NCBI GenBank assembly: GCA_034679345.1
Contig: JAXDAY010000028.1
Coordinates: 71,876 to 135,875, forward strand
Length of the DNA: 64,000 bases
Direction of reading: 5' to 3'
Origin: Candidatus Eiseniibacteriota bacterium
GTDB lineage: Bacteria > Eisenbacteria > RBG-16-71-46 > CAIMUX01 > VGJL01
Part shown: positions 3,266-27,994 of the stretch, in pieces
Position numbering within the stretch: the first letter of the stretch is position 1
Layout: the number at the start of each line of letters is the position of its first letter
The notes under the pieces: generated by a model
Told to the model about the DNA's origin: nothing
Databases searched by the model: none
The model's input: only the letters and a program-made list of their open reading frames with translations
Program-made: the position numbers and the translations under genes

Positions 3266-3286
3266 GGCCGGAATCCTCCTTTCGGA

Positions 3287-9088: not shown

Positions 9089-9126
9089 GGCCCCACCCTA
9101 GCGGATACCAGGGAAACCGGAAGAGG

Positions 9127-9202: not shown

Positions 9203-9246
9203 GCCGCCTACGACGTCCTCACGCGGCGCGGCATGCTGGGGTCGCC

Positions 9247-9432
9247 ATGCTCACGCAGAAGGCCATCGACGACCTCAAGGCGATCTGGCTCCGGAAGTAC
9301 GGGGAGCAGCTCACGGACGCGGAGGCGTGGGAGATGGGCAACCGCCTTCTCCGCGTCTTCGCCGTCCTCCTGCGTGCCCCCATGCCGAAGCGGGACGAGA
9401 AGGTTCGAACCGCGTCCACGAGCCTGTATTGA
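9247..9432 (+). CDS. small hypothetical protein (Cro-like or recombination directionality factor candidate)
   Basis: 61-aa ORF with balanced composition, immediately upstream of and co-directional with the serine recombinase, and divergent from the XRE gene. Confidence 0.45.
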   Translation: MLTQKAIDDLKAIWLRKYGEQLTDAEAWEMGNRLLRVFAVLLRAPMPKRDEKVRTASTSLY

Positions 9433-9486
9433 CGTGCTGCGGAACTTAATTCTACGATTCCTCCCTCGAGCATTGATCCCACGCCC

Positions 9487-11049: not shown

Positions 11050-11096
11050 TGTCATCATGCCACCAGCATACGATTCCGGTATGCGGGTGCGTAGGT

Positions 11097-11131
11097 GGCG
11101 GAGGTAAGGGGTGTCTCACCTCCCTGTGGAT
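11097..11131 (+). repeat. copy B of the ~35-bp motif, 48 bp past the recombinase stop (candidate att/recombinase-binding half-site or distal operator)
   Basis: ggcggaggtaaggggtgtctcacctccctgtggat. Same GGAGGT-to-TGTGGAT spacing (25 nt) as copy A. It has the CCCTGTGG left arm but lacks the CCACAGGG partner. Confidence 0.6.
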
Positions 11132-11249
11132 TCTCGGGCTAGTCCCGCACGAGAGACTGTAAGATGGCCCTGGTGAATCTGCAGGCGCTGATCGTGCCCG
11201 CAATCTCAGTCTGGCAAGACGCCTTTACGGGGCCTCATTGGAGCCCTGG

Positions 11250-12920: not shown

Positions 12921-12975
12921 AATGTCACTTCGCAACGTTGCGTCTACACTGTATCAGGGACAGCGCCACGATGTG

Positions 12976-14655
12976 CTACTCAACCCACCCGAGGTAAGTC
13001 GTGAACGCTGTTTCCACGGGGGAACGGTAGACAATTGCGCCTGTGTGCACATCAACTAGATAGAAGCGTCTCGTACCATCTGCCAACTGGGTACATGGCA
13101 CCATGAGGTATCCATCGGGTGTCATTGCAAGCACATCATACTCCTCGGCATTAGCAGGCAGTACTGCTAACTCGGCTTGCTGACCCTGTAGCGTTCGTGT
13201 GATGAGGTGGAGTTGATTGTCGTCTTGCATAGTCGCAACGACGACGGCATCATCTGACACAAAGGTGGCGGTTAGGAGCGAGCCTGGCACGCTAAAGGTG
13301 TCCTCGGTCGTAGCGTCCACGTCGGCTACAGACACGGAGCGCTCATGATCATTCGGGTATTGCGGAGATGATATGTACAGAATATGCCGCATATCAGGGC
13401 TGATCGCAGCTTGCAGGTATTGGCGAGCATCATCGTGTACGAGCGGATGGACTAGGTAGGGATCGGCTGGTGCGGAGAGCCAAACGCCGGGTTCGGAGTA
13501 TCCTCCGGGATTGGCGACCACATATTCATCAGTACTTGGTGACCAAGAAAGCCGATTCGTCCCCCCGCCGATGCTAAGCCTTTTGAACCCTGCGGGATGG
13601 TTTGGCTCCATGATGGCATAGTAACCACCCTCATAGTAGCCTAGCGAGAGATTGATGTACTTACCGGATGGGGACCACCCAGGATTCGCGAGGGAATAGA
13701 CCCCGTCGAGACCGTCCAGCGACCATTGTGGCGCCATCTCGGTATCCCCAGGAGGTCGACTCGTGATATCAAACAATCGCCGGGTGGTACCCGTCACACG
13801 ATCCCATATCGCCACCCCATCCTGTTCGACAAAGAGCAGATCGGAACCGTTTGGTGCGAGAGCGATGCTAGGCGGTCTCATGCTCCAATAGTTAGAATTC
13901 ATTTCGGCTGGCAACGACTCATCATACGTAAAGAGCGTTGTTGCACTGGCGTTGCTCGTGTTGAGTATCCACACGGTGACCTGCGTTCCAGACTTCGTTG
14001 CATAGAGCATCCTAGCATGGCTCATCACAGCCACATTGTCGACCGGTGGCAACAACGTGAAGCTCTCCCGCAGCGTCTCTAGGCGCAATGCACACATTTC
14101 CTGGTAGTCCGGCATCGTAGCTGACGCGAGTGAAACGAGATACAGAGAGTCGGTTATCTGGGTTGATTCTACTATCTGGGAAGTATTGTCGCGTGATCGC
14201 CAGATGCTTACTTCACGCGTTGCCCCGGCAATATCCTCCGTACGACTGCCATCCTGATCAAAGGTTGCCAGGAACGTAGTTGGTTCTACCGTGTATACAC
14301 GCAATTCGCACGGCAAACCACCAGTGAAGAACACCGCATAGTCCTTGTTGCTGAGATCCATATACTCGCCGAGTACGCTCCAATCGAAATAACTATAGCC
14401 AATCGAATATCCAAGAAGATCATTCGTGAAGCGGCGTGTGAGGAGGAAGTCAGACTTACGTGGATGGAGGCTTTGCGTCTCGTTCGTCGAGGGCACCGGC
14501 ACGGTTGTATTGTAGGTTGTGGCAGCCATGTTTGTGTCGCCCTGATCACGGGTCACGAAGTAGTACGCACCCGTAACGAGGAGCGTCAGGACAAGGACGA
14601 AGGCCAGAACAGGTAGGGTGGTGATGCTGTTGAGGTTGGATGGGGTCTTAGACAT
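12976..14655 (-). CDS. exported beta-propeller protein (TolB-like PD40 repeats)
   Basis: ATG at 14655 gives MSKTPSNLNSITTLPVLAFVLVLTLLVTGAYYF. WSPSGKY and SWSPSTDEYVV repeats are PD40-like. Low GC. Confidence 0.55.
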   Translation of the reverse strand: MSKTPSNLNSITTLPVLAFVLVLTLLVTGAYYFVTRDQGDTNMAATTYNTTVPVPSTNETQSLHPRKSDFLLTRRFTNDLLGYSIGYSYFDWSVLGEYMDLSNKDYAVFFTGGLPCELRVYTVEPTTFLATFDQDGSRTEDIAGATREVSIWRSRDNTSQIVESTQITDSLYLVSLASATMPDYQEMCALRLETLRESFTLLPPVDNVAVMSHARMLYATKSGTQVTVWILNTSNASATTLFTYDESLPAEMNSNYWSMRPPSIALAPNGSDLLFVEQDGVAIWDRVTGTTRRLFDITSRPPGDTEMAPQWSLDGLDGVYSLANPGWSPSGKYINLSLGYYEGGYYAIMEPNHPAGFKRLSIGGGTNRLSWSPSTDEYVVANPGGYSEPGVWLSAPADPYLVHPLVHDDARQYLQAAISPDMRHILYISSPQYPNDHERSVSVADVDATTEDTFSVPGSLLTATFVSDDAVVVATMQDDNQLHLITRTLQGQQAELAVLPANAEEYDVLAMTPDGYLMVPCTQLADGTRRFYLVDVHTGAIVYRSPVETAFTTYLGWVE

Positions 14656-14769
14656 GGGTAGCGGGATGCTCTCCAATGTGGCACAGAGACCGGTGATGTC
14701 AAGGTAGGGGGAACGACCCCCGGATGGGAACCAAAGAAAAATCCCCAAGGAGGCTTGGGGATCGGCGGG

Positions 14770-16935
14770 CTACCGCACGATGACGATGCGCCGGGTCGGT
14801 GCGGTCGCCTGCGGGAGCCGGTAGAAGTAGACGCCAGAGGAGAGCTGCGGGAGCGAGCGCTTGAGCGCACCTGCCGTGAGCTGCTCCGGCTTGAGGTCGA
14901 GGGTGGTGACGAGCCTGCCGGCGACGTCGTAGACGCGGATGGGCACGGTCCCCTCCTTCGTCCGGCTGAGGACGATCGTCGGGTCGTCGACCGGCGGTTC
15001 GGGAGGCGGGACCTTCCAGCTCGGGTGGCCCCCATCGCAAGCATCCCAGGAGCCGTAGCCGTTCGATTGGCGGTCGAAGCACTGGTAACCAGTCGATGCG
15101 ATGTAGACCGCGAAGTCCATCCGGCCATCGCCATCGTAATCACCGACGCGAACCGGGTCGGAGGTGCTGCCGTAACCGCCGAACGGAGGATCTGTCCAGC
15201 TTCCGAACCCACCGCCATCCGCATGATAGTCCACATGCCAAACATGGTTGGCATCCCGGACCGCGATGTCGCAGTAGCCGTCACCATCGTAGTCGGCGGG
15301 GCACGGTGTGTCCGGGTAGCCGCCGTAGCCACCGAGGTTCGTGACATCCCAGGTTCCAGAACTGCCGAAGGCGTTACTCAAGGACGTTCCCGGATCGAAG
15401 TAGTTGATGAGGAACTTCCGGTCCGAGTTGCGGAGGAGAGCGATGTCCACGTACCCGTCGCCGTTGAAGTCACCAGCGCAGGGGCTGTCGTAGATCGTCC
15501 CGCCGTCGTGGGTCGCATCCCACCCGGTGAAGCCATTGCTCGAGAAGTCGAAACGCCAGTACCCGTTCGTGTCGCGGACGGAGATATCGGCCTTCCCATC
15601 GCCGTCGAAGTCTGCCCCGACGGGCGCGTCGCCGTAGCCGCCGTAGCCGCCGAGGTTCGTGACGTCGTACCCACCGAGGTTGTTGCACGCGTAGTCGATG
15701 AGGAACTTCCGATCAGAGTTTCGAAGGACGGCGATGTCGCAGATGCCGTCGCCGTCGTAGTCGGCCGGGCAGGGCGTATCCTGGGTGCCACCGTAGCCCT
15801 GGCCGACCCAGGCGTCCCACCCGCTCATGCCATCCGCGTCACCGCAGAAGTCGATGTGGAAGAGGCCGTCCGAGGTGCGGTCCCAGGCATCGGAGAGGCC
15901 GTCGCCGTCGAAGTCGTACGGCGTGTGGTGAGCTACGTCGACGTGCACCGAGAAGTGCGTCTGTCCCCAGCCTCCGATGATCTCGGTGTCGAAGCAGGGG
16001 CCGAAGTAGACGTCGTACGTGCCGTGGGCGATCGGCCGGATCCTGCCGACGAAGTTGAAGGTCGCGACCCCGTTCGTTGCGACGCTCGTTTCCTCGAAGG
16101 TGCAGGGCGACGGACAGCTGTTCCAGTCGTAGGGAGCTGGAGCGGTACAGGGGTAGTTGAAGAAGCTCTCCCCGATGGTTGCGGATTCGTTGCACGACGC
16201 GAGCTCGACGTACCCTTCCGGGTGTTGCTGGGCATTGCTGTACCACGTCGCCGACCCCGTGTTCCGGAACTTCACCTGGCAGGTGACGTAGTCGTACATG
16301 TGGTACGGGCCAGAGGGACTGATGGACTTCGAGACGAAGGTGCAGGCGAGTGTTGGCTGGGGCGGCGGAGGAGGCGTGTCGTTGCCATAGAGGATTGGAT
16401 CGGTGAACAGGCCGCCATCGTACGTGTAGGGGTCGACTGCCGTCCAGGCGCTGTTGATCCACGCGCGAGTCTCCAGATGAAGATGGTACCCGCCTCCGTA
16501 ACCGCATTCAGGGACCCCGTCGTGATCCACATCCGAGGCCGTGTACCCCGAGTTACTTGACTTCCCGATGTACTGCCCAGCAACGACAGTCTGCCCACCA
16601 TAGACCACAACAGTTCCGGCGAGCATGTGAGCCTCGATCACCTGTAGGTGGTACTGATCGTTCTGGATCTTGACGTAGTTGCCGTAATTTGGCGGGTCGC
16701 ATACCTGCCCGGCAACATCACCGATTGCAGTGATCACGGTGCCACCGATCGCTGCGTAGACATTCGTGCCCTGTGGACACCGGTAGTCCACACCAGGATG
16801 CCCATCGTAGCAGGCATCGCCGAACGGACACGTCACATTCCGAGCGCCGTCGAATGGGAACCAGAGCACCTTGGCGCCGAAAGCGACACCCGTGACCAGG
16901 GACATGAAAAGCACCAGAAGAACAAGAGCCCGCAT
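14770..16935 (-). CDS. M23 family metallopeptidase with FG-GAP/VCBS repeats and a T9SS-type C-terminal sorting domain
   Basis: Signal peptide MRALVLLVLFMSLVTGVAFGA with AGGAGG upstream. M23 motifs HPGVDYRCPQGT and HLHLE. Repeated DFDGDG/DYDGDG. C-terminal tail VYDVAGRLVTTL...SGVYFYRL. Confidence 0.85.
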   Translation of the reverse strand: MRALVLLVLFMSLVTGVAFGAKVLWFPFDGARNVTCPFGDACYDGHPGVDYRCPQGTNVYAAIGGTVITAIGDVAGQVCDPPNYGNYVKIQNDQYHLQVIEAHMLAGTVVVYGGQTVVAGQYIGKSSNSGYTASDVDHDGVPECGYGGGYHLHLETRAWINSAWTAVDPYTYDGGLFTDPILYGNDTPPPPPQPTLACTFVSKSISPSGPYHMYDYVTCQVKFRNTGSATWYSNAQQHPEGYVELASCNESATIGESFFNYPCTAPAPYDWNSCPSPCTFEETSVATNGVATFNFVGRIRPIAHGTYDVYFGPCFDTEIIGGWGQTHFSVHVDVAHHTPYDFDGDGLSDAWDRTSDGLFHIDFCGDADGMSGWDAWVGQGYGGTQDTPCPADYDGDGICDIAVLRNSDRKFLIDYACNNLGGYDVTNLGGYGGYGDAPVGADFDGDGKADISVRDTNGYWRFDFSSNGFTGWDATHDGGTIYDSPCAGDFNGDGYVDIALLRNSDRKFLINYFDPGTSLSNAFGSSGTWDVTNLGGYGGYPDTPCPADYDGDGYCDIAVRDANHVWHVDYHADGGGFGSWTDPPFGGYGSTSDPVRVGDYDGDGRMDFAVYIASTGYQCFDRQSNGYGSWDACDGGHPSWKVPPPEPPVDDPTIVLSRTKEGTVPIRVYDVAGRLVTTLDLKPEQLTAGALKRSLPQLSSGVYFYRLPQATAPTRRIVIVR

Positions 16936-16987
16936 GTCGTACCTCCTTTGGGAAACACCAGTATGTTGTGAAGGGGCAAGCCGAGAG

Positions 16988-17644
16988 CTACCGAACAAGC
17001 GCGAACGTGGGAAGAACGGTGCCACAGACATTGTCGAAGCACGAAAGAACGAGAGTCTTCTGCCTCCAGGTGAGAACGTAGTAGACAAGGCTGGTATCAC
17101 GCCCGTATTGTGCTACACCCTGTTTGGCGGGCACTCCAGCAAGTTGCGTGTCGGTCCAGACAGGGACACCGTCCAGCGTGGACAGGTATGCGGTAACTGC
17201 AGGCTGAGCGTCATCGACGATATCGACGGTGACATAGGTGGAGCCACCTTCGTAGGGCACGGTGATATCACTGAGAAGGTGACCGTCGTAGGCTGCGCTG
17301 TTTATGGTGGTGTTGTCGGTAACATGGAGTGTGTCGTAATACCGGAATGCGTAGCCCCATGGATCGCTTGTATATGTAATCAATGATGATGGCGTATTGA
17401 CATTCGATATGGTGTCTGTGTTGCTAAGGGTATTGAGATTCTGATCGCCAGGGGTTGTGTTGAGAGTATTGGCGACAGAGTGTGTGTTGTTCAGGTTGCT
17501 GGTATTGGTGGTCACGACGATGCTCGTGTTCCTCCGGTCACGGTTCGGAAAATACACCGCGCCTGCGACGATAACTGCCAGGACGAGGACGATGGCCAAG
17601 ACGGGAAGTGAGGCGATGCCGCGAGGACTAGGGTGCTTCGGCAT
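16988..17644 (-). CDS. hypothetical exported protein with an N/T-rich linker (low-GC)
   Basis: ATG at 17644 gives MPKHPSPRGIASLPVLAIVLVLAVIVAGAVYF, then NTSIVVTTNTSNLNNT.... Same N-terminal architecture as 11250..12920 and 12976..14655. Confidence 0.5.
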   Translation of the reverse strand: MPKHPSPRGIASLPVLAIVLVLAVIVAGAVYFPNRDRRNTSIVVTTNTSNLNNTHSVANTLNTTPGDQNLNTLSNTDTISNVNTPSSLITYTSDPWGYAFRYYDTLHVTDNTTINSAAYDGHLLSDITVPYEGGSTYVTVDIVDDAQPAVTAYLSTLDGVPVWTDTQLAGVPAKQGVAQYGRDTSLVYYVLTWRQKTLVLSCFDNVCGTVLPTFALVR

Positions 17645-17801
17645 AGGTGGGAGGGTTACTACTGAGAGCACGGATCAGGTGGCCCCGATTCGATGCTGGC
17701 ACGGGCAGAGACGGACTTGCCGCGGGTGGAAGCCCAGCTACTATCAGCCTGACAGAATGACGGGAGGTGTCAAGACGATGGCATCGCCCTTCACGGCGTC
17801 G

Positions 17802-18551
17802 TCAACTCCCAAGGGGGGATGGGGGGTACTCGATGGTTTCCGCAGTGCCGAGCAGACGCTCCGCGTAACGGTTGCCCGCCTCACGGACCCACCTCTCGCG
17901 GACGACGATTGCCCAGACAGCGATGAGGAACAGGTTGACGATTCCGGCAAGAAGCACGCTGACCTCAAGCGCTCTCCCTTCCGCAACCAGGTACCAGACC
18001 CGGAGGCCGCAGGCGACGATGCTGAACCCACAGAGAAGGATCCCCAGTACCTTGAGTGCCCAGAGGTTTCGCCGCGTGCCGTAATTTACATTCTCCTCGA
18101 ACACGAGGGGGAACAGTGCATGATCGCGGGTCCGCTCCCGCAGGTAGTCCACGCAGCTGTCGTACGCCGTCCCAGCAGCCCCGAGGTCTCGGGTTTCCTC
18201 TTCCGGGGTCAGCGGGATCGCGATGTGCGGGAGGATCGCAGCGAGCTTGTGGTGGTGGCGGTCCAGCGACGCCGGGTTGAGCCAACTGGTCTGGTAGGAG
18301 AGTGCATTCGTCGTCGGTTTGCCCCCCGTCCGGAAGAGGGACCGCTCCCGTCGCCGGCCTGCGTCCCGCCCGATCTGCGAAAAAACGAGAGCGAGCACGA
18401 TCATCGAAGCCGCCACGGCGGGGAGGGACCAGAGGTCCTTCTCTGCCGGAAACCAGGAGATGACAGCGAGCCCCACGGGGAGCAAGGTGACGAACCACGG
18501 GCCGATTCGCGCCTTGAGCGTATATGGGTCGAAGAAGCCCGCTGCGTTCAT
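17802..18551 (-). CDS. hypothetical 4-TM membrane protein
   Basis: Two N-terminal and two C-terminal hydrophobic helices around a ~100-aa soluble segment. Lies 19 nt downstream of the MBL gene on the same strand. Confidence 0.6.
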   Translation of the reverse strand: MNAAGFFDPYTLKARIGPWFVTLLPVGLAVISWFPAEKDLWSLPAVAASMIVLALVFSQIGRDAGRRRERSLFRTGGKPTTNALSYQTSWLNPASLDRHHHKLAAILPHIAIPLTPEEETRDLGAAGTAYDSCVDYLRERTRDHALFPLVFEENVNYGTRRNLWALKVLGILLCGFSIVACGLRVWYLVAEGRALEVSVLLAGIVNLFLIAVWAIVVRERWVREAGNRYAERLLGTAETIEYPPSPLGS

Positions 18552-18569
18552 GGTGTCATCTCCTGCATG

Positions 18570-19649
18570 TTAGTCCTCCTCCTCATCGTGGGTCGCAGCA
18601 AAGGCGATCGCTGTTGCCGGGCTCCAGTTCTCCCGCACGCGCAAGTCGGAGCTGTGGTGGTACAGAGCGGTCCCTTGTGTCTTGAAAGTCCGCGCGCCGC
18701 GCCGGACGAGGGCGTTCGTCACCCGCTTCGACGGGTGGGTCGGCTCCCCCTTCGCCGCGACGGAAATGGAGCAGACCTTCCCGTTGGTTTCACCCTCCCT
18801 GACAATCGGGCCAATGAGTCTGTTGAGCAGCATCGGGCCGACATTCCGCTTGCTCCCATGGTGAGGAACCTGGATGTGCATAAGATTCCGGAGGTCCACG
18901 CCGGTCATCCCCGCGAAATCGAGGGCTCGCGAGATCGCATCGACACCCGCGTCCCCCGTGAAGAGAAAGGCCCGCTCGCCGAAGTCCACCCGCAGGACAA
19001 CGGAGGAGTTGTTCTCGGCGGTGACGCAGTCCGGATCCGGCTCCAGAAGCGCATCCTCATTCCACGTCTCGTGGATGGTCTTGAAGAACTTCCGAACCGC
19101 GGCAATGAACGACTTGCCAGTGACCGGCTCCTTGAAGGAGAGGAGGAGTTCTCGGTAGTACGTCTCGGTCGGGCCAAGCACGCGAAGGATGCCGTCCGCT
19201 GTCGCGACTCCCGCGAAGGGTTCCACGATCCGGACCCCCTTCCTCCCCGCGAGGTCCTCGAGGTCGCTCGCAGCGGCCAGTGACCTCTCCAAAGCTGTCG
19301 GTGCCGCTGGTGCACGCGTCCCGATGGCCCTCCTGAGCGCCTTGATCTGCTCGGCGTGCTCCCACGGCCTGTGCATGAGGAGCGTGCCGACAGATAGTTC
19401 CTCGAGGATGACCCGAAGACCCGACACATGGTCGTTATCCGGATGCGTAGAGAACACATAGTCGACGTGGCTCGTCCCGTACACATCGCGGATGTGCCGA
19501 ACGAGGTCCTCGCCGGACTTCTGGAAACCTCCGTCGACCACGACCACCGTCTGCGTCCTAGAACTGCTCAGGTCGCCGTATCGGAACGCGATCGCATCGC
19601 CGCTGGCCGATTCATCCCCTACCGGCCGGTAATCAACCTCGTAACTCAT
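18570..19649 (-). CDS. MBL-fold metallo-hydrolase
   Basis: STHPDNDHVSG (an HxHxDH-type variant), later HHGSKRN, and the beta-lactamase fold spacing. Confidence 0.8.
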   Translation of the reverse strand: MSYEVDYRPVGDESASGDAIAFRYGDLSSSRTQTVVVVDGGFQKSGEDLVRHIRDVYGTSHVDYVFSTHPDNDHVSGLRVILEELSVGTLLMHRPWEHAEQIKALRRAIGTRAPAAPTALERSLAAASDLEDLAGRKGVRIVEPFAGVATADGILRVLGPTETYYRELLLSFKEPVTGKSFIAAVRKFFKTIHETWNEDALLEPDPDCVTAENNSSVVLRVDFGERAFLFTGDAGVDAISRALDFAGMTGVDLRNLMHIQVPHHGSKRNVGPMLLNRLIGPIVREGETNGKVCSISVAAKGEPTHPSKRVTNALVRRGARTFKTQGTALYHHSSDLRVRENWSPATAIAFAATHDEEED

Positions 19650-19799
19650 GGAATATCCCTTTCCGTCTTCGGTGCGGAGTGTGACCGCTTTCCGAGAGTG
19701 TTACTGATCGGATCTCCTGGGCTCATCGCGCGGAGGAGCCCTAACACGTGGCACTGTAAGCGGTTTTTTGTGAACAGTCAAGCAACGAAAAAGCGCCGC

Positions 19800-20537
19800 T
19801 CATTCCTCCATCTGCAACCGCATCTGGTCCAAGGAGTTCGGGAGTGCACCGAGCTCCTGGAGCCGGTGATTCACGACCTGCATGCTGACGTCGAACATCC
19901 GCATGATCTCGCGGACGATCGTCTCCAACATCCTGTCGCCAGCTGCATCGAGTAGGGAGGTGAATCCCCGATCATCGAGCAACGAACGGACTGCATCAAG
20001 GGTCTCTCGCTTCGGCAGAAGGAGGCTCGCCATTCCACGATTGGCCTGGTACTCCCACCACTTTCCATCGTACCCGCTTCCCGAATCACGGAAACGCCAG
20101 AGGGAATCCCCTCGGCACATGATCTTCGGTTCGTCAGGCGGCGGGTCACCGAAGAGCGACTGCGTGGCTGTGTCGACGAGGTAGAGCTGGGTGTGCATGA
20201 CGACGTGGGCGCATTCATGCGCCAGCGTGCTCCGGAAACGACGCCGGGCGACGTCATCGTGTTCAGCGGCTTCGGAGAGTTCCCGGCTGATGAATACCTC
20301 ACAGCGCCCGTCGCCGTGGAAGTGCGTCTTGCCGAGGATCCCTTCGGGGAGCGGGATGTAGTCGGGAACGATGTTGTGGGCCCTTTCGAGGACCGCCTCG
20401 ACATCGACCCCACGACCCGCAGTGAAATGCGGGACATCGGCACGTTGCCGGGATTCATCCATGATGAGATCGAACTCATGGCTCTCGAACCAGATCGTCT
20501 GCCCCCAGGGGCTTGCTGGGTCTCGCCGTGTCCTCAT
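19800..20537 (-). CDS. ImmA/IrrE-family metallopeptidase
   Basis: LAHECAHVVMH is the HEXXH motif. Its start overlaps the stop of the upstream XRE gene as ATGA. Confidence 0.8.
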   Translation of the reverse strand: MRTRRDPASPWGQTIWFESHEFDLIMDESRQRADVPHFTAGRGVDVEAVLERAHNIVPDYIPLPEGILGKTHFHGDGRCEVFISRELSEAAEHDDVARRRFRSTLAHECAHVVMHTQLYLVDTATQSLFGDPPPDEPKIMCRGDSLWRFRDSGSGYDGKWWEYQANRGMASLLLPKRETLDAVRSLLDDRGFTSLLDAAGDRMLETIVREIMRMFDVSMQVVNHRLQELGALPNSLDQMRLQMEE

Positions 20538-20896
20538 TTTCCTTTCTTCTTCTTCCGCTGCTCTTCTTCCTCCAGCCTCCGTAGAATCTCCCGGGGGTCC
20601 TTTCCCGTGTCCCGCATGCGACGGAGCATGTCCCTCACGCCTGGTGTCGCGTCAGCCCACGCCCGAACATCGGGGTCGATCCGTGTATCGAGCTTGGAAA
20701 GCTCCGGCAACGACGCCCCGACCTCTTTCAGCGCGTCCACCATCCGCTTCAGTAGAGGTGGAGGTGGCCTACGCCGGTCGTGCTCGATGTCCGACTGGTA
20801 CGCTGCGGAGATCTCCATCGTCTCTGCGAATTTGCGAAGCGTGATGCCGGCTTCTGTGCGTAAACGTCTGATTTCCTGCCCCAGAGTTGGACCCAT
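20534..20896 (-). CDS. XRE-family HTH transcriptional regulator, partner of ImmA
   Basis: IRRLRTEAGITLRKFAETMEISAAYQSDIEHDRR is an XRE HTH. The C-terminus is lysine-rich. Confidence 0.8.
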   Translation of the reverse strand: MGPTLGQEIRRLRTEAGITLRKFAETMEISAAYQSDIEHDRRRPPPPLLKRMVDALKEVGASLPELSKLDTRIDPDVRAWADATPGVRDMLRRMRDTGKDPREILRRLEEEEQRKKKKGK

Positions 20897-20970
20897 GACC
20901 TTATGTTAGCTTACGATTGTGAACAAGTCAATCCCTGTCACTCAGAAGACTACCTACCGATTTGAAGGGC

Positions 20971-21414
20971 TCAGTCGGCATCACCTTCTGATTCTTCCTT
21001 GAGGAACCGCCCAATGAGGTCCCTACAGGTCCTGGTCGGCCGGTGCCTCCCCTTCTCCCAGTCGAGCACCGAGCTCGGGTCGACCCCTAGTCGCAGGGCG
21101 AGGTCGGCGTGGGAGAGCCCGAACCGGCGACGGGTCGCCCGAAGCCGTTCTCCGAGCGTGGACCCGGTCTCGGTCGGGTCGTAGCCGAGGAACCGTAGCA
21201 CCCCCGGGAGCGCCCGGAGGTTCGGTGAGGCGGTTCCCGCCTCCCAGTTGAAGACCGTGGTCGGATCGACTCCGATACGCAACGCAACCTCGCGCTGCAG
21301 GAGGCCGAGGTCCAGGCGGCGCTTGCGGACGTGGTCGCCCAGAGAGCGGAGTTCCGTAGGGTATTCCGGCGCAAGGGGTTTCGGGCATCGGAGTTCCAAG
21401 TGGCAGAATGGCAA
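20971..21414 (-). CDS. XRE-family regulator with two tandem HTH domains
   Basis: Two HTH units: LRSLGDHVRKRRLDLGLLQREVALRIGVDPTTVFNWEAG and LGERLRATRRRFGLSHADLALRLGVDPSSVLDWEKG. Confidence 0.75.
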   Translation of the reverse strand: MPFCHLELRCPKPLAPEYPTELRSLGDHVRKRRLDLGLLQREVALRIGVDPTTVFNWEAGTASPNLRALPGVLRFLGYDPTETGSTLGERLRATRRRFGLSHADLALRLGVDPSSVLDWEKGRHRPTRTCRDLIGRFLKEESEGDAD

Positions 21415-21908
21415 CGCAGGGATGTCCCTGCGGATTCCTCGGCGACCCGAGGCGCGCCTGCCAATGCAGCCCCACGCGAATCCAGCAGTACCGTGGCCGT
21501 GTGAGCGGGCCGCTCATGGACCGGATCGACCTCCACATCGAGGTGGCGCGCGTCCCGATCGAGGCGCTCGACAGCGATCAGCCGGGCGAGTCTTCGGCAA
21601 ACGTCCGCCGCCGCGTGATCGCCGCGCGCGAGATCCAGCAGCGTCGCTTCGTGCAGGCGCCGGGCATCCACACGAATGCCCAGATGTCGATCCGTCACCT
21701 GTTCGAGCACGCGCAACCCGACGGGCGCGGGCGCGCGCTGCTCAAGATGGCGGGGGAGCGGATGGGGTTCTCGGGGCGGGCGTTTCACCGCGTCATGCGC
21801 GTCGCGCGCACGATCGCGGATCTCGACGGATGCGAGACGGTGGGAGAGAAGCAGATCGCCGAGGCGATCGGATACCGGGTGCTGGATCGGCAGAGCCCCG
21901 ACTCGTAG
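21408..21908 (+). pseudogene. comM: comM/yifB (Mg-chelatase-like AAA+ competence protein) 3' fragment; the N-terminal ~330 codons are absent
   Basis: GCPCGFLGD...RVSGPLMDRIDLHIEV...FHRVMRVARTIADLDGCETVGEKQIAEAIGYR matches the ComM/YifB C-terminal third. There is an in-frame stop at 21357 and the upstream sequence is not ComM-like. Overlaps the divergent XRE gene start. Confidence 0.8.
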
Positions 21909-21923
21909 CGAGGATCGCGGGCT

Positions 21924-23021
21924 CTACCGGAACAGCCAGCGCATCTTGCCCCAGCTCACCGCCTCGACCGCCGTATCGATGCATCCGAGGCCACGCGCGC
22001 CGATCACGCCGCACTGCACGCCTCCATGCTCACCCGGAAGACAGGGCGAGCTCTCGAGCAGCCCCACGTCACCGCTGTCCGGATCGCAGAAGAGGGGATC
22101 CTCCGAGAAGTTCCCATGCGACGGCAGATTGTCGCACCACCAGCCCCGGTAGTCCCCGAGCTCGTTTCCCCATACGTCGCAGCACTCCAACGACTTGACG
22201 TTGAAGTCACATTCCACGCCATAGCCGTTGATCGTCTCCGCGATGATGCAGTGGGACACGGCACCTGCCCAATCACCCATATTGTCTGCCAGAGTACTCC
22301 CGAACCCACTGCGAACCTCGTTCCGGAACAGCGTACAGCGATGCATGCTGTGAACGATCGTCGCCGATACAGCCGCCCCATCATCCGACTTGTTCCCGAT
22401 GAAGATGCATTCCTCCATTGTGAGGTTTCCCGCGTCCACTGCCCCTCCCAAGCGACCCGACTCATTGTCGATGAAGACGCATCTCCGTATCTCTGTCGGG
22501 TCTGCCCCCGACTTGATCGCTCCACCGGTGTTCGACTCGTAGCTTGGATCCGTCGACTTGTTGTTGTAGAAGGTGCAATCCTCGACGATAAGCGACCCGT
22601 ACCCACGGATCGCTCCTCCACCGCTCAAGACGCTCTCATTGCTGTCGAATGTACAATTCCTAACAACGAGCTCTCCACCTCCGAATAGAAGTGGGGATCC
22701 TTCATTGAAGATCCGTAGATTCTCGACCATCGCATCGATGTGATCAAACAACATGCTGATCCGCAATGCGGTCTCTTCAGGACGGGAACCAGCGCCACGG
22801 ATCGTTAATGGTCCTTGAGTCAACCGGTTGTCGAATACATCGAGGCCATCGTATTCATCGTACGTTCCTGGCTCGATGAGGACTGAGTCCCCTCCGCTCG
22901 CTGCTAGAACTGCCTCCCGCACGAGCATGAAGTCCCCCCCTCCCCCCTGATCGACGATCCAGGTACGCGCGAGAACCGGAGCGGCAATCAGTACCAAGGC
23001 GACCGTGACGATGACACGCAT
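21924..23021 (-). CDS. secreted right-handed parallel beta-helix repeat protein
   Basis: Signal peptide MRVIVTVALVLIAAPVLA. Repeated G-rich beta-helix rungs (NCTFDSNES, EDCTFYNNKS, RRCVFIDNES, EECIFIGNKS). Confidence 0.75.
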   Translation of the reverse strand: MRVIVTVALVLIAAPVLARTWIVDQGGGGDFMLVREAVLAASGGDSVLIEPGTYDEYDGLDVFDNRLTQGPLTIRGAGSRPEETALRISMLFDHIDAMVENLRIFNEGSPLLFGGGELVVRNCTFDSNESVLSGGGAIRGYGSLIVEDCTFYNNKSTDPSYESNTGGAIKSGADPTEIRRCVFIDNESGRLGGAVDAGNLTMEECIFIGNKSDDGAAVSATIVHSMHRCTLFRNEVRSGFGSTLADNMGDWAGAVSHCIIAETINGYGVECDFNVKSLECCDVWGNELGDYRGWWCDNLPSHGNFSEDPLFCDPDSGDVGLLESSPCLPGEHGGVQCGVIGARGLGCIDTAVEAVSWGKMRWLFR

Positions 23022-23188
23022 GACGAAGACTCCTTGCCCGGAAGGGCAGCCCGAAGGCCGCCCCTCCGCTCTCCCGCTACCGCAGGACGGTTACGCGACG
23101 GCTTTCTGCTCCGGAGCCCCATGTAAGGCGATACCAGTATACGCCGCTTGCCACGGGCCGCCCTCCCGGGTTGGGACCGATTCCTAGC

Positions 23189-23527
23189 CTAAATACGCAA
23201 CTCCCGCTGGATCAGGAAACGGGATCGGGTCAGCCCGTCGCCGAGAACCCTCAGGGGCTTCTCCCACATGAAGATCTCAGGATCCGTTGGATCGTCATGC
23301 CCTTCTTCTCGATACACTCCAGGCCGGATCAGGACGGAGTCCCCTGCGGAAGCTGCCTCACACGGGGCGGCTACGGAGGCGAAGTCCCCGGTGCCGTCCT
23401 GCGCGACGATCCAGGTGCGGGCCAGACTCGGACGGGCGGCAGCGACGAGCCACAGCCACCCGATAGCGAGAAAACACGATGATATCAATGATGGTTGAAT
23501 AGTCCCCAGAAGTGGCGGTTGGGACAT
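23189..23527 (-). pseudogene. truncated paralog (N-terminal ~110 aa) of the beta-helix protein
   Basis: ARTWIVAQDGTGDFASVAAPCEAASAGDSVLIRPGVY aligns with ARTWIVDQGGGGDFMLVREAVLAASGGDSVLIEPGTY of 21924..23021. The ORF ends after 112 aa. Confidence 0.55.
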
Positions 23528-23834
23528 CCTGAGTGTCCGGGAGAGGTTGAAGAGGCAGGCAAGAGAACGTCGGCGTCGTCACAGCCGAGGACTACCCCCA
23601 GAGAAGGAGAAACTGATCCGCCCGTCGTCGTTTCGCGAAGTCTGTGTCTATTCCGAGCCTGATGTGTCCCATTTCAGTCGACTCCGCCTCACTGCAAAGT
23701 CCGTCCTCCGTTTCCAGGTGCCGCTCCCGCATGCGCGAATGGACGAGCGCCCGCCCGACGGCGCCGACGGCCCGCCGGAGCGGAGCGCTCATCCTATGTC
23801 GGGGAGCTGCTCCGGAAACGCCTCGCCGGGACCG

Positions 23835-25445
23835 TTATTCAAGCCGGATCATCCTCACCGTCTCGGAGGCGTCGCCCACGCGCAGCATGGAGTAGTAGAC
23901 GCCACTGGCAAGCTTGCCTCCATTCAGCTCGCGCTCGTAGTCGCCCGCGGGAAGCGCGCCCTCCACGAGGACGGCAATCTCCTTGCCCTGTAGATCGTAA
24001 ACGGCGAGCCGCACGGGTACCGGGGATCGGCCCTCAGACATCGGAATCCTGAAGCGGATCGTGGTCAGTGGCCTGAACGGATTCGGCTCACTCCGGAGCT
24101 GGAGGGCAGCACGAGTCCCAATCGGAACTCCGGCCCCCGGCGCCGCCGCCGGAGTCTGCGAGTATTTGATCGTCGCGAGATCGAGGCCCGTGCCGTCGCC
24201 GCCGCTCTGGCCCGACACGTAGACTCCGCCAAAGGCATCCACGTCGATCGCGTGCGGGGTATCGTAGAAATTCCCCGGACCGTTGTACCTCTCGACCCAG
24301 CGGGTCGTACCCGATGGATCGTAGGCGATGGTGGCGTAGTCATAGAGGGTCACATCATCGCCGTAGCTGATCCCGGTGACGTATGCGTTCCCCTGATCGT
24401 CCACCGCGATCGCGTTTGCATTTTCGGAAGTCTCCGCGGACCCGTACCTCTGGACCCAGATCTCGTTGCCTGCGGCGTCGTACTTCACGGTCGCGAAATC
24501 ATCCGCGCTGTTCCCCGCCACGAAGACGTTTCCGGACGGGTCAATCGCCAATGAAGAAGCGTAGTCATAATCCACTCGAAACTCGGTCGAGGGACCGTCG
24601 TATCGTCCCACCCACAGGTCCGTTCCGCCCGGGTCGTACTTGATCGTGGCATAGTCGAAGTTCGTGCCCGCACCAACGCTCATGCCGGTAACATAGATGT
24701 TACCCGCGGCGTCGACCTTGACCTCGCTGGCTGAATCGGTGGAGTTGCCGGGACCGTCGTAGCTCCGGACCCATTGCTCAACGCCTTCGAAGTCGTACAT
24801 GATCGTCGTGTAATCAGAGTCGCTTCGTCCCGTCACCACGATGCCGGATGCAGTCACAGCAATGGACGCGGCGACATCCTCGCCGGCGCCGCTGTCAAAT
24901 CGCCGGACCCACACCTCCTCGCCGATCGGGCTGTATTTGATCGTGGCGTAGTCGAGGCTCGTGCCGTCTCCTGTGCTGTAGCCCGTGACATACACGTTCC
25001 CATCCGGATCGACTGCAATTGAGGTGGCGACGTCCTCTTCGAAGACCGGTCCTTCGTAAATTCGGATCCATTGCTGCTCGCCCAATGAGTCGTACTTGAT
25101 CGTCAAGTAGTCGGCGCCAAAGCCTTGGCTTGATCCTGTGACATAGACGTTGCCGAGGTCATCGAGCGCGATGTCGAAGCCGACATCATGGGAGCTTCCG
25201 TCGAAAGTCCGTACCCATTGCTCGTTGCCCGCTGTGTCGTACTTGATCGTCACGCAGTCCGTGCCGAAATCCGCGGAGATGGTCCCGGTGACATATACGT
25301 TGCCCGACGCGTCGGCTTTCAAGTCGTAGGCGACGTCATTGAAGCTCGCGGGACCGTCATATCGTGCGACCCATTCCTGTTGGACCTGAGCGGAGGCGGC
25401 CGAGAGGACTGAGAGGAGGAGCAACGTCAAAGCAAGCATTCTCAT
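23835..25445 (-). CDS. SBBP beta-propeller repeat protein with a T9SS-type C-terminal sorting domain
   Basis: Signal peptide. About 10 repeats of DxxGNVYVTG...DYxTIKYD. C-terminal tail PNPFRPLTTIRFRIP...VYDLQGKEIAVL...SGVYYSML. Confidence 0.8.
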   Translation of the reverse strand: MRMLALTLLLLSVLSAASAQVQQEWVARYDGPASFNDVAYDLKADASGNVYVTGTISADFGTDCVTIKYDTAGNEQWVRTFDGSSHDVGFDIALDDLGNVYVTGSSQGFGADYLTIKYDSLGEQQWIRIYEGPVFEEDVATSIAVDPDGNVYVTGYSTGDGTSLDYATIKYSPIGEEVWVRRFDSGAGEDVAASIAVTASGIVVTGRSDSDYTTIMYDFEGVEQWVRSYDGPGNSTDSASEVKVDAAGNIYVTGMSVGAGTNFDYATIKYDPGGTDLWVGRYDGPSTEFRVDYDYASSLAIDPSGNVFVAGNSADDFATVKYDAAGNEIWVQRYGSAETSENANAIAVDDQGNAYVTGISYGDDVTLYDYATIAYDPSGTTRWVERYNGPGNFYDTPHAIDVDAFGGVYVSGQSGGDGTGLDLATIKYSQTPAAAPGAGVPIGTRAALQLRSEPNPFRPLTTIRFRIPMSEGRSPVPVRLAVYDLQGKEIAVLVEGALPAGDYERELNGGKLASGVYYSMLRVGDASETVRMIRLE

Positions 25446-25840
25446 GCTGAAGCCCTTCCCAAATCCCGCGGCCGGGACGTTGAATCAACATTCCGGCATT
25501 CCAGACCGGGCCGCTTGATGAGCGCACCGGTCGAGTTCCCATAACCCATCGATGCTACGCGGGCTTCCGAGGTGGGTCGAGCCCCTCGACCTCATAAGGC
25601 TTCCTCCTCATGGCGCGGCCATCGGGACCGCCGGAAGTGGGGTCGAGCGCGTGGACACGAAAGCGCATCCACGCGGCGCAGGATCTACGGTAGGGAATCC
25701 TTCGGTGGCTCGCCCGCAAGCTCCCCTGACGGCGCATCTTGCGGCGACGGCGGACCGCATCGGGTCGGCCGGCCTGGACCGGCGCCCGCCGCGAGCCTAG
25801 AATTGCCCTGCTCCTGCAATTGGGGAAGGAGGGAGCGATT

Positions 25841-27994
25841 ATGGGCCGCCTGTCGTCCCGGTTGTCGATCCTCTTGGTTCTCGTCTTCGCGATCTCTTCG
25901 AACGCCCCCGCGACTCCACCCGATGCCCCGAGCTTTCTCTCCTCGACGCTGTGGAGCAATCCAAACTCGGTGCGCATCCACGACGACACGGCCTATGTCG
26001 TCTATCCGAACGGTCTCGCCGTCTTCGACGTCTCGGACCCAACGACTCCGGCTCTGCTCGGACGCGCCTACTCGCCTGGTTGGCTGTCACGGCTGGAGCT
26101 GATGTGGCCGTACGCCTTCGTCGGCTCGACCGACCGCATCCGGATCTTCGACGTCTCCGATCCGACGTCCCCGCGCGAGATCAGCTCCTACGCGGCATCG
26201 GGGGAGCTGGGCGACTTCGCGTTCGCCAAGAACCTCGCATACATCGAAGCTGGCGACTACGAGCGGACGCTCGAGATCGTCGACTTCAGCGATCCGACCG
26301 CTCCGGTCCTGCTCGGTTCCTGCGTTGCCCCAGGGATGAGCGTCGCGGTCTCCGGGGAGTACGTCTATTTGCCGTCGTACCACGAGGGTGTCTTCATCGT
26401 CGACGTGTCCGACCCTCATCAGCCATATGTGGCCGGTCATTGGGACATGGGGATCTTCTTCACGATTCGCGTTCACGGGGACCGCGCCTACTGCATCTGG
26501 AACAGCGGCGAGGAAGAGCAGGGGGAGAACGGTGAGGATCTGCGCGACGATAGCGGCGTGATCGTCTATGACATTTCCGAACCGTTCGAGCCGGTCTACC
26601 TCGGGGAATACCGGGCGCAGTTCGGTGCGGAGTGGGTGAGCGAAATCTACTTCGATGGCGGCCTCGCCTACCTCACCCCCGGCCCTGGAACCGCCCTGAT
26701 CCTGGACTTCTCCGATCCTTCGAATCCGGTCGTTGTCGGCAACCTCGTCACCGACGGCGACTTCCGGGATCTCGATTTCCAGGGCGATGTGATGTACATC
26801 GCCGACGGGCGCAACGGCCTGGTCAGTGCGGACGTGAGCGACCCGGCCGAGCCGTCCGTCCTCGGGAGTTGGTGGGAGGCTTCGTACCCTTCGGGAGTCG
26901 CCGTCGACGATCGGGCCGCATTCATCGCCGACGGGGTTTTCGGCCTGCACGTCCTTGACGTCCACGATCCCCTCCATCCCGTCGTGATCTCGCGGCTTCC
27001 GATGATCGATCCTCCGGACAACCTGGACGTGGCCGGCGAGTATGCGATTGGCTGGGACTCTCAGACCGGAATCGACGTCATCGATGTCGCCGCGCTCGGT
27101 CAACCGGAGCGGGTCGCGCACCTGGACGTTCCGGCCAGCGGGCTCGCCGTCGCAGGCGACGTCGCGTATGTCGTCCGAAGCGCCCAGTTCACCTCGATCG
27201 ATCTCTCCGATCCGCGCCATCCCATGGTCCTCGGCGGCTGCGCAATTCCTGAGTACGCGGGTTACGATGTCTGCGCGCACGGTGGCCTCGCCTACGTTGC
27301 CAACGGGGACGCGGGCCTCGTCATCGTCGACGTCTCGGATCCGGCGAATCCGTTCCGGCGCGGATCCTGCGACCTCTACGACCGGCCTTACAACGTCGTG
27401 ACCGACGGTTCGGTCGTCTACGCGGGCCTCTCGCACTACAAGCTCGGCGTCTTCGACGTCACAAACCCGGACCAGCCATACTTCGTGCGCGAGATCGTGC
27501 TCCCCGGAGGGCTGGGGATGATGCAGATCGTCGAGGATCGCCTCTTCGTCGACGCGACGCCCGGGATCCGCGTCTACGATATCTCGGATCCTCGAGATCC
27601 CGTCGAGGTCGGTAGCGCGGACGTGATTGCCGGGAGGTTCGACATCCACGGGCCGTTCCTCTACTTCGTCGGCGGCTCGTTCCTCGTCCTCGGGCCGGCA
27701 GCGGCGGACGTCAATGCGGAGATCGTGAGCCTCGAAGATCATCTTCGCGTCGTGGCGGCCGACCCCGTGTGCGCCGAGGCGAGGATTCGTGTGCACCTGG
27801 GCCGGGCAGGAGATCTGACCGTCTCGGTCTTCGACCTGGCCGGCCGGCTCGTCGCGACGCTCTACGATGGCGCCGCGGAAGCGGGGGAGCACTCCCTTCG
27901 CTGGGAGCCGGGCCCCGCCCCAGCGGGGGTCTACTTCGTACGGGCCGAGTCTCAGGGACGATTGGCGAGCCGGATGATGCACCGCATCCGGTAG
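25841..27994 (+). CDS. LVIVD-repeat protein with a T9SS-type C-terminal sorting domain
   Basis: ATG at 25841 after GGAAGGAGGGAG. Signal peptide. Repeated G(L/V)xV(F/I/V)DVSDPxxP units. C-terminal VSVFDLAGRLVATL...AGVYFVRA. Confidence 0.8.
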   Translation: MGRLSSRLSILLVLVFAISSNAPATPPDAPSFLSSTLWSNPNSVRIHDDTAYVVYPNGLAVFDVSDPTTPALLGRAYSPGWLSRLELMWPYAFVGSTDRIRIFDVSDPTSPREISSYAASGELGDFAFAKNLAYIEAGDYERTLEIVDFSDPTAPVLLGSCVAPGMSVAVSGEYVYLPSYHEGVFIVDVSDPHQPYVAGHWDMGIFFTIRVHGDRAYCIWNSGEEEQGENGEDLRDDSGVIVYDISEPFEPVYLGEYRAQFGAEWVSEIYFDGGLAYLTPGPGTALILDFSDPSNPVVVGNLVTDGDFRDLDFQGDVMYIADGRNGLVSADVSDPAEPSVLGSWWEASYPSGVAVDDRAAFIADGVFGLHVLDVHDPLHPVVISRLPMIDPPDNLDVAGEYAIGWDSQTGIDVIDVAALGQPERVAHLDVPASGLAVAGDVAYVVRSAQFTSIDLSDPRHPMVLGGCAIPEYAGYDVCAHGGLAYVANGDAGLVIVDVSDPANPFRRGSCDLYDRPYNVVTDGSVVYAGLSHYKLGVFDVTNPDQPYFVREIVLPGGLGMMQIVEDRLFVDATPGIRVYDISDPRDPVEVGSADVIAGRFDIHGPFLYFVGGSFLVLGPAAADVNAEIVSLEDHLRVVAADPVCAEARIRVHLGRAGDLTVSVFDLAGRLVATLYDGAAEAGEHSLRWEPGPAPAGVYFVRAESQGRLASRMMHRIR

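Follow-up and report, generated by a model that had tools for sequence, protein, structure and literature searches.

In the CapH/CapP system, an M78-family peptidase that is activated by single-stranded DNA (ssDNA) cleaves a helix-turn-helix (HTH) repressor and derepresses the neighboring immune operon (Lau et al. 2022). The C-terminal HTH and GAF domains of CapP and IrrE form an ssDNA-binding groove, the pair has relatives in ImmR/ImmA (ICEBs1 and phages) and DdrO/IrrE (Deinococcus), and approximately 31% of Bub operons carry a CapH/CapP-type pair. A second point of reference is PDC-M48, a phage-defense candidate in PADLOC (cassette CAS_00157, FAM_01875>>FAM_00178; 63 instances) that was put forward on account of its location within BREX, DISARM, and type I restriction-modification (RM) loci ('guilt by embedding'; Payne et al. 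2024, preprint) and that joins a metallo-beta-lactamase (MBL)-fold protein to a small multi-transmembrane (multi-TM) protein. Here we examine a locus that resembles both. It lies in a 64,000-nucleotide stretch of a Candidatus Eiseniibacteriota bacterium genome (contig JAXDAY010000028.1, positions 71,876 to 135,875; hereafter the window), between window positions 17802 and 21414, and includes a repressor and peptidase termed XRE120 and ImmA245, an MBL-fold protein termed MBL359, and a 4-TM protein termed TM249.

We conclude that this architecture is already known as a candidate: the MBL359-TM249 pair is a variant of PDC-M48 with a new, predominant partner family, placed under a CapH/CapP-type switch at the comM-island slot. 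We interpret the region as the end of a mobile island in comM at which cargo is carried, with the switch probably wired to a two-gene operon. MBL359 is a full-length member of the PDC-M48B family (PDLC04676, 5.5e-81, residues 2-354 against model positions 2-355 of 357), it is joined by a small multi-TM protein as in PDC-M48, and the RM neighborhoods match. A preliminary description of this DNA had regarded an MBL protein with a small TM partner as undescribed, which the PADLOC entry corrects; it is the TM249 family that remains unmodeled. TM249 matches no PDC-M48A model (E > 0.1) and is a non-homologous 4-TM protein at the same position, and for this reason PADLOC would not call the window system. 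Furthermore, no regulator has been described for PDC-M48, whereas the window pair has a switch.

The comparison with CapH/CapP likewise reveals both agreement and departure. In each case, an XRE-family HTH repressor is followed by an M78 peptidase with an HExxH motif, directly beside an operon. The window pair also shares an operator motif with its adjacent operon, and its orthologs are found upstream of CBASS, Bub, and other cargo. However, the window switch points in the same direction as its cargo instead of diverging from it, the 245-amino-acid peptidase has no detectable GAF domain, and the cargo is an MBL-TM pair rather than CBASS.

The MBL359 nuclease candidate and its membrane partner

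Both sequence and predicted fold place MBL359 (Pfam Lactamase_B, 1.6e-8) close to ComEC. Its catalytic set (D39, H69xD71xD73H74, H93, D233, H263H264GS) is invariant over 35 homologs. Compared with PDB structures, its AlphaFold2 model (mean pLDDT, the predicted local distance difference test score, 90.7; low-confidence loop at 176-185) is closest in fold to 9ic4, a crystal structure of the beta-lactamase-like domain of ComEC (E 2.5e-17; TM-score 0.77 on the target), with phosphorylcholine esterase Pce and RNase J next. When an MBL359 profile is compared with PDB sequences, only ComEC chains are retrieved at E < 1e-3, with two unrelated MBL chains between 1e-3 and 1e-2. The motifs THPDxDH, NNSS, GD, and VPHHGS and a C-terminal HP...RT.G segment are shared with the C-terminal beta-lactamase-like domain of ComEC (PDB 9ic4, 30bt, 9vc6). 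In contrast to ComEC, the 359-residue protein has neither the competence channel nor the OB domain, has an insertion of about 90 residues (~96-200), and lacks competence synteny, its context being mobile and patchy. No hydrophobic segment or signal peptide was found in MBL359, and no NCBIfam model reaches its cut-off; ComEC_Rec2 (TIGR00361) scores 36.9 bits against a cut-off of 190, aligning residues 203-325 with the C-terminal model positions 553-660. MBL359 is predicted to be a soluble, stand-alone metallo-nuclease of the ComEC type and not ComEC itself. The preliminary description had proposed structure prediction as a way to tell a nuclease from a lactamase-like active site, and the nuclease domain of ComEC is indeed the best match. 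It had also raised the prospect of a ComEC-type or housekeeping hydrolase; the first part of this holds for sequence and fold, but the protein is free-standing and soluble and has no conserved core synteny.

Other MBL-fold proteins of defense systems are more distant. PADLOC gives weaker matches to the MBL effectors of Lamassu (LmuA-MBL), DRT (RT-associated MBL), and Avs1 (Avs1a). The protease-activated effectors (trypsin-MBL modules of Avs, Hachiman, and pAgo; Avs1a) resemble MBL359 as MBL-fold, remotely ComEC-related defense proteins, and a related defense-associated MBL is a Zn-dependent double-stranded DNA nuclease after proteolytic activation. They differ in that the window has no adjacent trypsin, caspase, or subtilisin and no fused sensor, and the partner is a membrane protein instead. 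Membership of MBL359 in established families was rejected for Avs1a (NF041809, 44.8 bits against a cut-off of 420) and for 6A-MBL (NF058524, 36.1 bits against a cut-off of 220, over a 34-residue stretch). Also rejected as a known equivalent was Rst_Hydrolase-3TM, which we take to be the DefenseFinder name for the HAD-like hydrolase and TM system of Rousset et al. 2022; the hydrolase of that system is HAD-like, whereas MBL359 has the MBL fold. As a separate observation, some loci carry a second, shorter ComEC-like MBL paralog directly beside the main MBL gene (L006:7014-7946; L165:7147-7965).

The association of the two genes was surveyed in 80 MBL loci from genomes (Planctomycetota, Patescibacteria, one archaeon, Acidobacteriota, Verrucomicrobiota, Bacteroidota, Cyanobacteria, Vibrio, and others) and in 80 independent metagenome loci, 65 of which have room downstream of the MBL gene. 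A TM249 homolog directly adjoins the MBL gene at 42 genome loci (downstream at 41, upstream in L011), and a different protein with two to four TM segments takes the partner position at 32 more, such that 74 of the 80 have a multi-TM partner beside the MBL gene, almost always directly downstream. At two further genome loci, the TM249 homolog lies about 1 kb downstream, behind an intervening gene. The other six loci have no adjacent partner, and at least three of their contigs end too soon to show one. Among the 65 metagenome loci, 56 have a recognized partner, which is of the TM249 type in 39, and two more have other TM proteins (~58/65). Over all 160 loci, the MBL gene is followed by a small multi-TM protein in approximately 90%. 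The median distance from stop to start is 2 nt, and in 58 of 73 pairs the two genes either overlap or are separated by no more than 10 nt. The MBL and TM proteins are strongly co-conserved, and their pairing is near-obligate and mostly tightly coupled.

The distances among MBL proteins also correlate with those among TM249-family ('T1') partners (Mantel r 0.31, a value reached by 0 of 2000 permutations). A crude neighbor-joining tree of the MBL proteins conflicts with organismal phylogeny, with the archaeal MBL grouping with Phycisphaerae and a Peribacteria MBL with Planctomycetes, and it also reveals partner switches. In L163, for example, the MBL is 52% identical to MBL359 and the partner is a different protein of 165 residues. 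The preliminary description had asked whether such pairs co-occur in other genomes and sit in defense islands; they do co-occur, often among RM genes, on plasmids, or in prophage-like contigs.

TM249 has hydrophobic segments at residues 14-32, 40-58, 165-183, and 199-217, with a 106-residue loop rich in Arg and Lys between the second and third and a tail that is also basic. From this pattern, its N and C termini are predicted to lie inside, and the conserved, basic, helical 106-residue domain would be cytoplasmic. The motifs GRDxGK, WGGxPTT, and ENVNYGFRRN are conserved. No match to TM249 was found in Pfam, NCBIfam, or PADLOC (PADLOC at E <= 0.1), and its all-alpha AlphaFold2 model (pLDDT 93.6) has no fold match in the PDB (best E 0.24). 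The family is nonetheless large: a profile search of 1.84 billion representatives retrieved 3,377 clusters at 50% identity, 1,560 of them at E <= 1e-30, and the best 150 of the 3,377 have lengths of about 210-270 residues. TM249-type proteins are the commonest MBL partners in environmental genomes. Polytopic membrane components coupled to cytoplasmic DNA-targeting effectors are found in Kiwa (KwaAB) and Zorya, which offer a plausible functional analogy for TM249 and MBL359 without any sequence or fold relationship.

The partners that are not of the TM249 type, with two to four TM segments, form four further families, for a total of at least five. Homology among the five was sought and rejected (hhalign probabilities <= 10%). 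The PDC-M48A models match only the 162-residue 'T3' partners (e.g., that of L057 at 6.7e-64), and T1 compared with T3 gives an hhalign probability of 0.2%. A link to Csx27 was likewise set aside. The 222-residue 4-TM partner of the Vibrio xiamenensis MBL (L065:9067-9735) matches this type VI-B CRISPR accessory protein at E 2.2e-5 over nearly its full length, but none of 16 other family members does.

Genes that relate to defense or to DNA damage recur ahead of the pair. Our scan of the two genes upstream of the MBL gene covered 77 of the 80 loci from genomes and comprised 147 proteins. The commonest families are Peptidase_S24 (12), LexA_DNA_bind (11), the M and S subunits of type I RM systems (9 each), and Eco57I (8), and there are also ResIII, M78, and HTH_31 (4 each) and AbiEii (2). 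No trypsin, caspase, or subtilisin family is among the 25 commonest Pfam families of these neighbors. LexA-like repressors adjoin the pair at 14 of the 80 genome loci and at 10 of 59 loci from metagenomes (~17%), where they are directly upstream, divergent, or co-operonic with it (for example in L005, L040, and the metagenome locus L182), especially in Patescibacteria and Bdellovibrionales. The order lexA-MBL-TM often forms one operon, with gaps of no more than 10 nt in L004, L049, L062, and L067, and three loci (L022, L040, and L048) have two LexA-like genes within 17 kb. In addition, MBL genes were found on 48 plasmid records and 77 viral or prophage contigs, with TM partners adjacent in the contigs examined. 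In L165 the MBL gene stands beside HsdM and GmrSD genes, and on an Acinetobacter plasmid the neighbors of the pair are the BrnTA toxin-antitoxin (TA) genes.

The XRE120/ImmA245 switch and the shared promoter motif

XRE120 has an HTH_31 domain (Pfam, 5.6e-11, residues 5-63) and matches the PADLOC capH model at 2e-7 over residues 2-108, and its C-terminal extension contains motifs that are conserved among orthologs. ImmA245 has a Peptidase_M78 domain (7.8e-8) and matches capP at 2.7e-6 in the peptidase part only (model positions 23-123 of 242). These capH and capP matches are weak but specific. Residues H107, E108, H111, C141, and E162 of ImmA245 are invariant in three orthologs, and Cys141, which falls between HExxH and the third zinc ligand, is at the position of the CapP cysteine switch. 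Judging from these features, XRE120 and ImmA245 are a predicted CapH/CapP-type (ImmR/ImmA-like) repressor/metallopeptidase switch controlling cargo.

This assignment is consistent with what the orthologs adjoin. Of 108 detectable ImmA245 homologs, genomic context was inspected for four (L166-L169), whose XRE-ImmA pairs are 42-72% identical to those of the window. The closest pair (L166; ImmA 60%, XRE 72%) has the equal 4-nt overlap between its two genes and precedes a CBASS operon (CD-NTase, E2-CBASS, SAVED) at a site away from comM. In L167 (55%, 65%), the order is a C-terminal comM fragment, a multi-HTH gene, XRE, ImmA, a DUF2188 gene, and a Bub operon (Multi_ubiq, ThiF, BubE). In L168 (47%, 56%), AIPR and SNF2 helicase genes are followed by XRE, ImmA, and an SDH-type protease, and in L169 (43%, 57%), Pycsar-like genes and MmeI are followed by ImmA and DUF1508. 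The XRE ortholog of L169 was located by tblastn just upstream of ImmA, where no gene had been called. One ImmA homolog at 47% identity carries the annotation Candidatus Eisenbacteria. Cassettes of XRE-ImmA-(DUF2188)-MBL-T1 also occur in L007, a Paceibacterota genome, and in L043, another bacterium, in both cases without a comM context. The earlier proposal that the XRE/ImmA pair is a switch for cargo is supported by orthologs that lie directly upstream of CBASS, Bub, and SDH-type protease genes and beside Pycsar and MmeI genes.

A small DUF2188 gene is found repeatedly upstream of MBL-TM or Bub cargo (L007:7731-7997; L043, between 5681 and 6036; L167:5802-6035; L163:3939-4175; L003:4515-4871), and in L007, L043, and L167, it sits between the XRE/ImmA switch and the cargo. 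No such gene is present in the spacer between ImmA245 and MBL359 in the window.

An unbiased scan of positions 17500-21600 found exactly two sigma-70-like promoters, compared with 0.5 expected. Promoter P1 precedes XRE120-ImmA245 and promoter P2 precedes MBL359-TM249. Both have the form TTGACT-17-TAnnnT with TGTTCACAA directly after the -35 box, and their common motif can be written as TTGACT(T)GTTCACAA. This combined motif of 14-15 nt is absent elsewhere on both strands of the window. In L166, L167, and L169, TGTTC(A/G)C occurs at the matching position, right after the -35 box, before the XRE gene and again before the cargo, and an inverted GAACAC follows the -10 box in several of these loci. 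Because P1 and P2 carry a common motif, the switch can be tied to the MBL-TM pair, and the two operons would share a putative operator. Judging from the promoter position, the P1 transcript is predicted to be nearly leaderless, whereas P2 would give MBL359 a leader of about 100 nt, in which neither an unusual fold (z = -0.5) nor an Rfam match was found.

The preliminary description had listed five co-directional minus-strand genes with their domains and with XRE120 and ImmA245 coupled through ATGA, all of which we recovered in place (Table 1). The stop of XRE120 and the start of ImmA245 share the ATGA, which indicates translational coupling. The gap between MBL359 and TM249 had been given as 19 nt and measures 18 nt. 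The same account had also treated the genes as a single tight cassette. Genes and order are as it described, but separate promoters precede XRE120, in a 74-nt gap, and MBL359, in the 150-nt spacer that follows ImmA245. For this reason, the five genes are three units and not one cassette: an island-end regulator and two two-gene operons, XRE120-ImmA245 and MBL359-TM249. No intrinsic terminator was found within the gene group, and one weak site lies downstream at 17570-17555. A plus-strand open reading frame at 17457-19283 (608 aa), antisense across TM249 and MBL359, was discarded as a high-GC antisense artifact without support as a gene.

Table 1. Features of the locus and its junction with comM (window positions)
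Feature	Position	Strand	Description
TM249	17802-18551	-	4-TM inner-membrane protein (predicted), partner of MBL359, family T1
MBL359	18570-19649	-	Predicted soluble ComEC-type MBL-fold metallo-nuclease, PDC-M48B family
Promoter P2	19753-19781	-	TTGACT, 17 nt, TACAGT, with operator-like motif; upstream of MBL359-TM249
ImmA245	19800-20537	-	M78 zinc metallopeptidase, CapP/ImmA/IrrE-like
XRE120	20534-20896	-	CapH/ImmR-like HTH repressor, predicted substrate of ImmA245
Promoter P1	20903-20931	-	TTGACT, 17 nt, TAACAT, with operator-like motif beside the -35 box; upstream of XRE120-ImmA245
Two-HTH regulator (XRE family)	20971-21414	-	HTH_3 twice; outermost gene of the island
Island/comM junction (approximate)	21415-21422		Just 5' of the comM CPCG codons
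comM/yifB 3' remnant (residues ~343-499)	21408-21908	+	Chromosomal side of the junction

Proposed function and competing explanations

Our preferred interpretation, to which we assign a probability of roughly 0.55, is that MBL359 and TM249 form a DNA-damage-induced anti-phage or abortive nuclease module under the control of XRE120 and ImmA245. The layout of genes and promoters and the conserved operator motif suggest a resting state in which XRE120 would bind the TGTTCAC... operator overlapping the spacer of both near-identical promoters and repress both operons. The same switch stands before CBASS and Bub operons, and by analogy, DNA damage or ssDNA arising from phage replication, prophage induction, or restriction cleavage might activate ImmA245. 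We infer that the peptidase would then cleave XRE120, upon which P1 and P2 would both fire. MBL359, with its ComEC-type active site and fold, would act in the cytoplasm as a binuclear-metal nuclease and would be made together with TM249. It probably docks on the basic cytoplasmic domain of TM249 at the inner membrane. Such a complex could degrade phage DNA, host DNA, or both, such that phage replication is aborted. TM249 might anchor the nuclease, serve as its sensor, or activate it, and could perhaps be a second, membrane-damaging effector instead.

Several observations weigh against this interpretation. XRE/ImmA genes are present at only about 3-4% of MBL-TM loci and most loci have no adjacent regulator, and the pair must therefore also be controlled in other ways. 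Where a LexA-like repressor is present, the linkage fits a plain SOS function equally well. ImmA245 has only about 60 residues beyond its peptidase domain. Because the protein is short, has no detectable GAF domain, aligns with capP only in the peptidase part, and has no relative among PDB sequences, the GAF-dependent ssDNA-groove mechanism of CapP and IrrE may not apply to it. The right half-site GAACAC of L166, L167, and L169 is not obvious in the operators of the window. Also, the window genes that adjoin the pair on its other side encode secreted proteins and not defense genes. A common mechanism across the five partner families is an assumption, as no homology among them is detectable. 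Finally, the Payne et al. 2024 preprint lists its 145 PDC systems, PDC-M48 included, as untested, and we found no paper in the literature that characterizes PDC-M48 or an MBL-TM system.

Among the alternatives, the pair might belong to an SOS-type damage response without any anti-phage role, with a nuclease for repair, nucleotide salvage, or programmed death acting beside a membrane protein such as a toxin or an inhibitor of division. Other bacteria have membrane toxins, nucleases, and division inhibitors that the SOS response induces. LexA-like proteins are the most frequent adjacent regulators and are often co-operonic with the pair, especially in the tiny genomes of Patescibacteria, and XRE/ImmA switches respond to DNA damage too. 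We nevertheless consider this explanation unlikely in view of a patchy distribution that conflicts with organismal phylogeny, the presence of the pair on plasmids, prophage-like contigs, and mobile islands and within RM loci, and the control of CBASS and Bub operons by the same XRE/ImmA family. The two LexA-like genes of L022, L040, and L048 also suggest dedicated paralogs rather than the housekeeping LexA. A different possibility concerns the regulators. XRE120, ImmA245, and the two-HTH protein could be the island's own ImmR/ImmA-type switch for excision and transfer, as in ICEBs1, with the MBL-TM pair as a passenger. The switch is within 1 kb of the comM junction, an end composed of a comM fragment and multi-HTH, XRE, and ImmA genes recurs in L167, the remaining island holds mobile-element genes (serine recombinase, RadC, DUF932, PD-(D/E)XK, RuvC-like), and ImmA245 is more like the short ImmA proteins than the GAF-containing CapP. 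However, P2, directly upstream of MBL359, has the operator-like motif of P1, and this motif is absent from the rest of the window, including the vicinity of the recombinase 10 kb away. The XRE-ImmA-MBL-TM set also travels jointly in L007 and L043 without comM, and the closest ortholog fronts CBASS at a distance from comM. A switch devoted to the island is for these reasons quite unlikely, and it would in any case be compatible with our preferred interpretation.

Two further explanations concern the pair itself. If MBL359 were a nuclease toxin and TM249 its antidote or sequestering partner, the two could serve as an addiction module that retains an island, plasmid, or prophage. The tight coupling of the operon, the interchangeable partner families, and the occurrence of the pair on mobile islands and beside other TA genes, such as BrnTA on the Acinetobacter plasmid, are all in keeping with this idea. 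It appears improbable, however, given that neither protein matches a TA family, the putative toxin gene precedes that of the antidote, and both would be repressed jointly by an external switch; embedding among RM, BREX, and DISARM genes and control by LexA are also atypical of TA modules. The other explanation is a split ComEC-like device that takes up or processes DNA at the membrane during competence. ComEC MBL domains are the closest solved relatives of MBL359, part of the protein aligns with ComEC_Rec2, and a membrane partner is always adjacent. Yet the ComEC_Rec2 score is far below its cut-off, there is no multi-TM channel or OB fold, the partners have only two to four TM segments and belong to at least five unrelated families, and both MBL359 and the large domain of TM249 are predicted to face the cytoplasm. 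Competence genes are absent nearby, where mobile elements and RM genes are found instead, and a role in DNA uptake is accordingly scarcely credible.

The anti-phage interpretation can be extended, more tentatively, from this locus to the family as a whole. A ComEC-type MBL protein with an interchangeable small membrane protein might be a widespread and mechanistically new immune module, in which a nuclease of DNA-uptake descent is held or activated at the inner membrane by a sensor or anchor, is armed transcriptionally by a LexA-like or CapH/CapP-like damage switch, and destroys invading or replicating DNA, with the cytoplasmic domain of TM249 constituting a new fold and TM249 itself the first of a new family of membrane proteins that partner immune nucleases. 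The module comprises thousands of sequence clusters and extends from Patescibacteria and archaea to Vibrio. We regard this broader reading as doubtful at present. If our preferred interpretation is correct, the locus would illustrate in compact form how a bacterial alarm for DNA damage is connected to a nuclease effector. The database candidate PDC-M48 would become a defined system whose commonest form is missed by current models, given that the ~3,400 clusters of the TM249-type partner family have no model in Pfam, NCBIfam, or PADLOC. A connection from a competence-type nuclease fold to defense, and the occurrence of the pair next to lexA in the very small genomes of Patescibacteria, would concern both the phage-defense and SOS fields.

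The comM junction and the mobile island

Disruption of comM at an island junction, which the preliminary description had proposed, is supported by the remnant and by a second genome with the same break point. The remnant represents the C-terminal third of ComM only (Pfam Mg_chelatase_C, 7.6e-31, plus the end of Mg_chelatase; TIGR00368 positions 344-499). A tblastn search with Escherichia coli YifB recovered residues 343-496 and no further part of comM in the 64 kb, and no Walker A motif was found anywhere in the window. The window also has no tRNA gene and no second copy of the junction sequence that might represent an att repeat. In the window and in L167 alike, similarity to ComM stops directly before the CPCG codons (L167:3900-3940). 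In both, a multi-HTH gene with a TTG start and a conserved MPFC N terminus lies within about 8 nt of the junction. The window protein (HTH_3 twice, 4.7e-20) is 44% identical to the 231-residue multi-HTH protein encoded right beside the comM fragment of L167, and the two loci share no nucleotide-level similarity. The identical break point and homologous island-end genes in two genomes without nucleotide similarity indicate that related elements integrate site-specifically in comM.

The gene for the two-HTH regulator is absent from L166, L168, L169, L007, and L043, and on this evidence the regulator belongs with the element that integrates in comM and not with the MBL-TM pair. There is no room inside the island for a promoter of the multi-HTH gene; its transcription may start in chromosomal DNA or may require circularization of the element.

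Mobile-element genes occupy positions 2537-11049 and encode DUF932, RadC, PD-(D/E)XK, a 220-residue protein (p220), DUF3644, two RuvC-like proteins, an HTH protein, and a large serine recombinase (9487-11049), which is 10 kb from the switch and not adjacent to it. The PD-(D/E)XK protein, p220, and RadC are 56%, 56%, and 43% identical, respectively, to products of L163 (L163:189-2224 and 10003-11817), a locus that also carries DUF2188, a Bub operon, an MBL-TM pair, and a serine recombinase. By these similarities, the window and L163 elements look like one family with a variable cargo slot. The second comM junction of the island was not found in the window, and the island probably extends beyond the window's left end. 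An island family that integrates in comM and ends in a conserved switch and a slot for swappable cargo (MBL-TM, Bub) is a useful place to seek further immune genes. Away from comM, members of this switch family also precede CBASS and other cargo.

Between the serine recombinase and the MBL-TM pair are four consecutive minus-strand genes (11250-17671) for proteins of about 561, 559, 721, and 218 residues, each with an N-terminal hydrophobic anchor or signal. Peptidase_M23 and FG-GAP repeats were recognized in the 721-residue protein, which ends in a sorting-like tail. On the chromosomal flank past the comM remnant (21924-27994), a set of genes that suggests an uncultured lineage of high GC content encodes large secreted proteins with repeats or beta-propeller-like structure, which have similar C-terminal tails of the sorting type.

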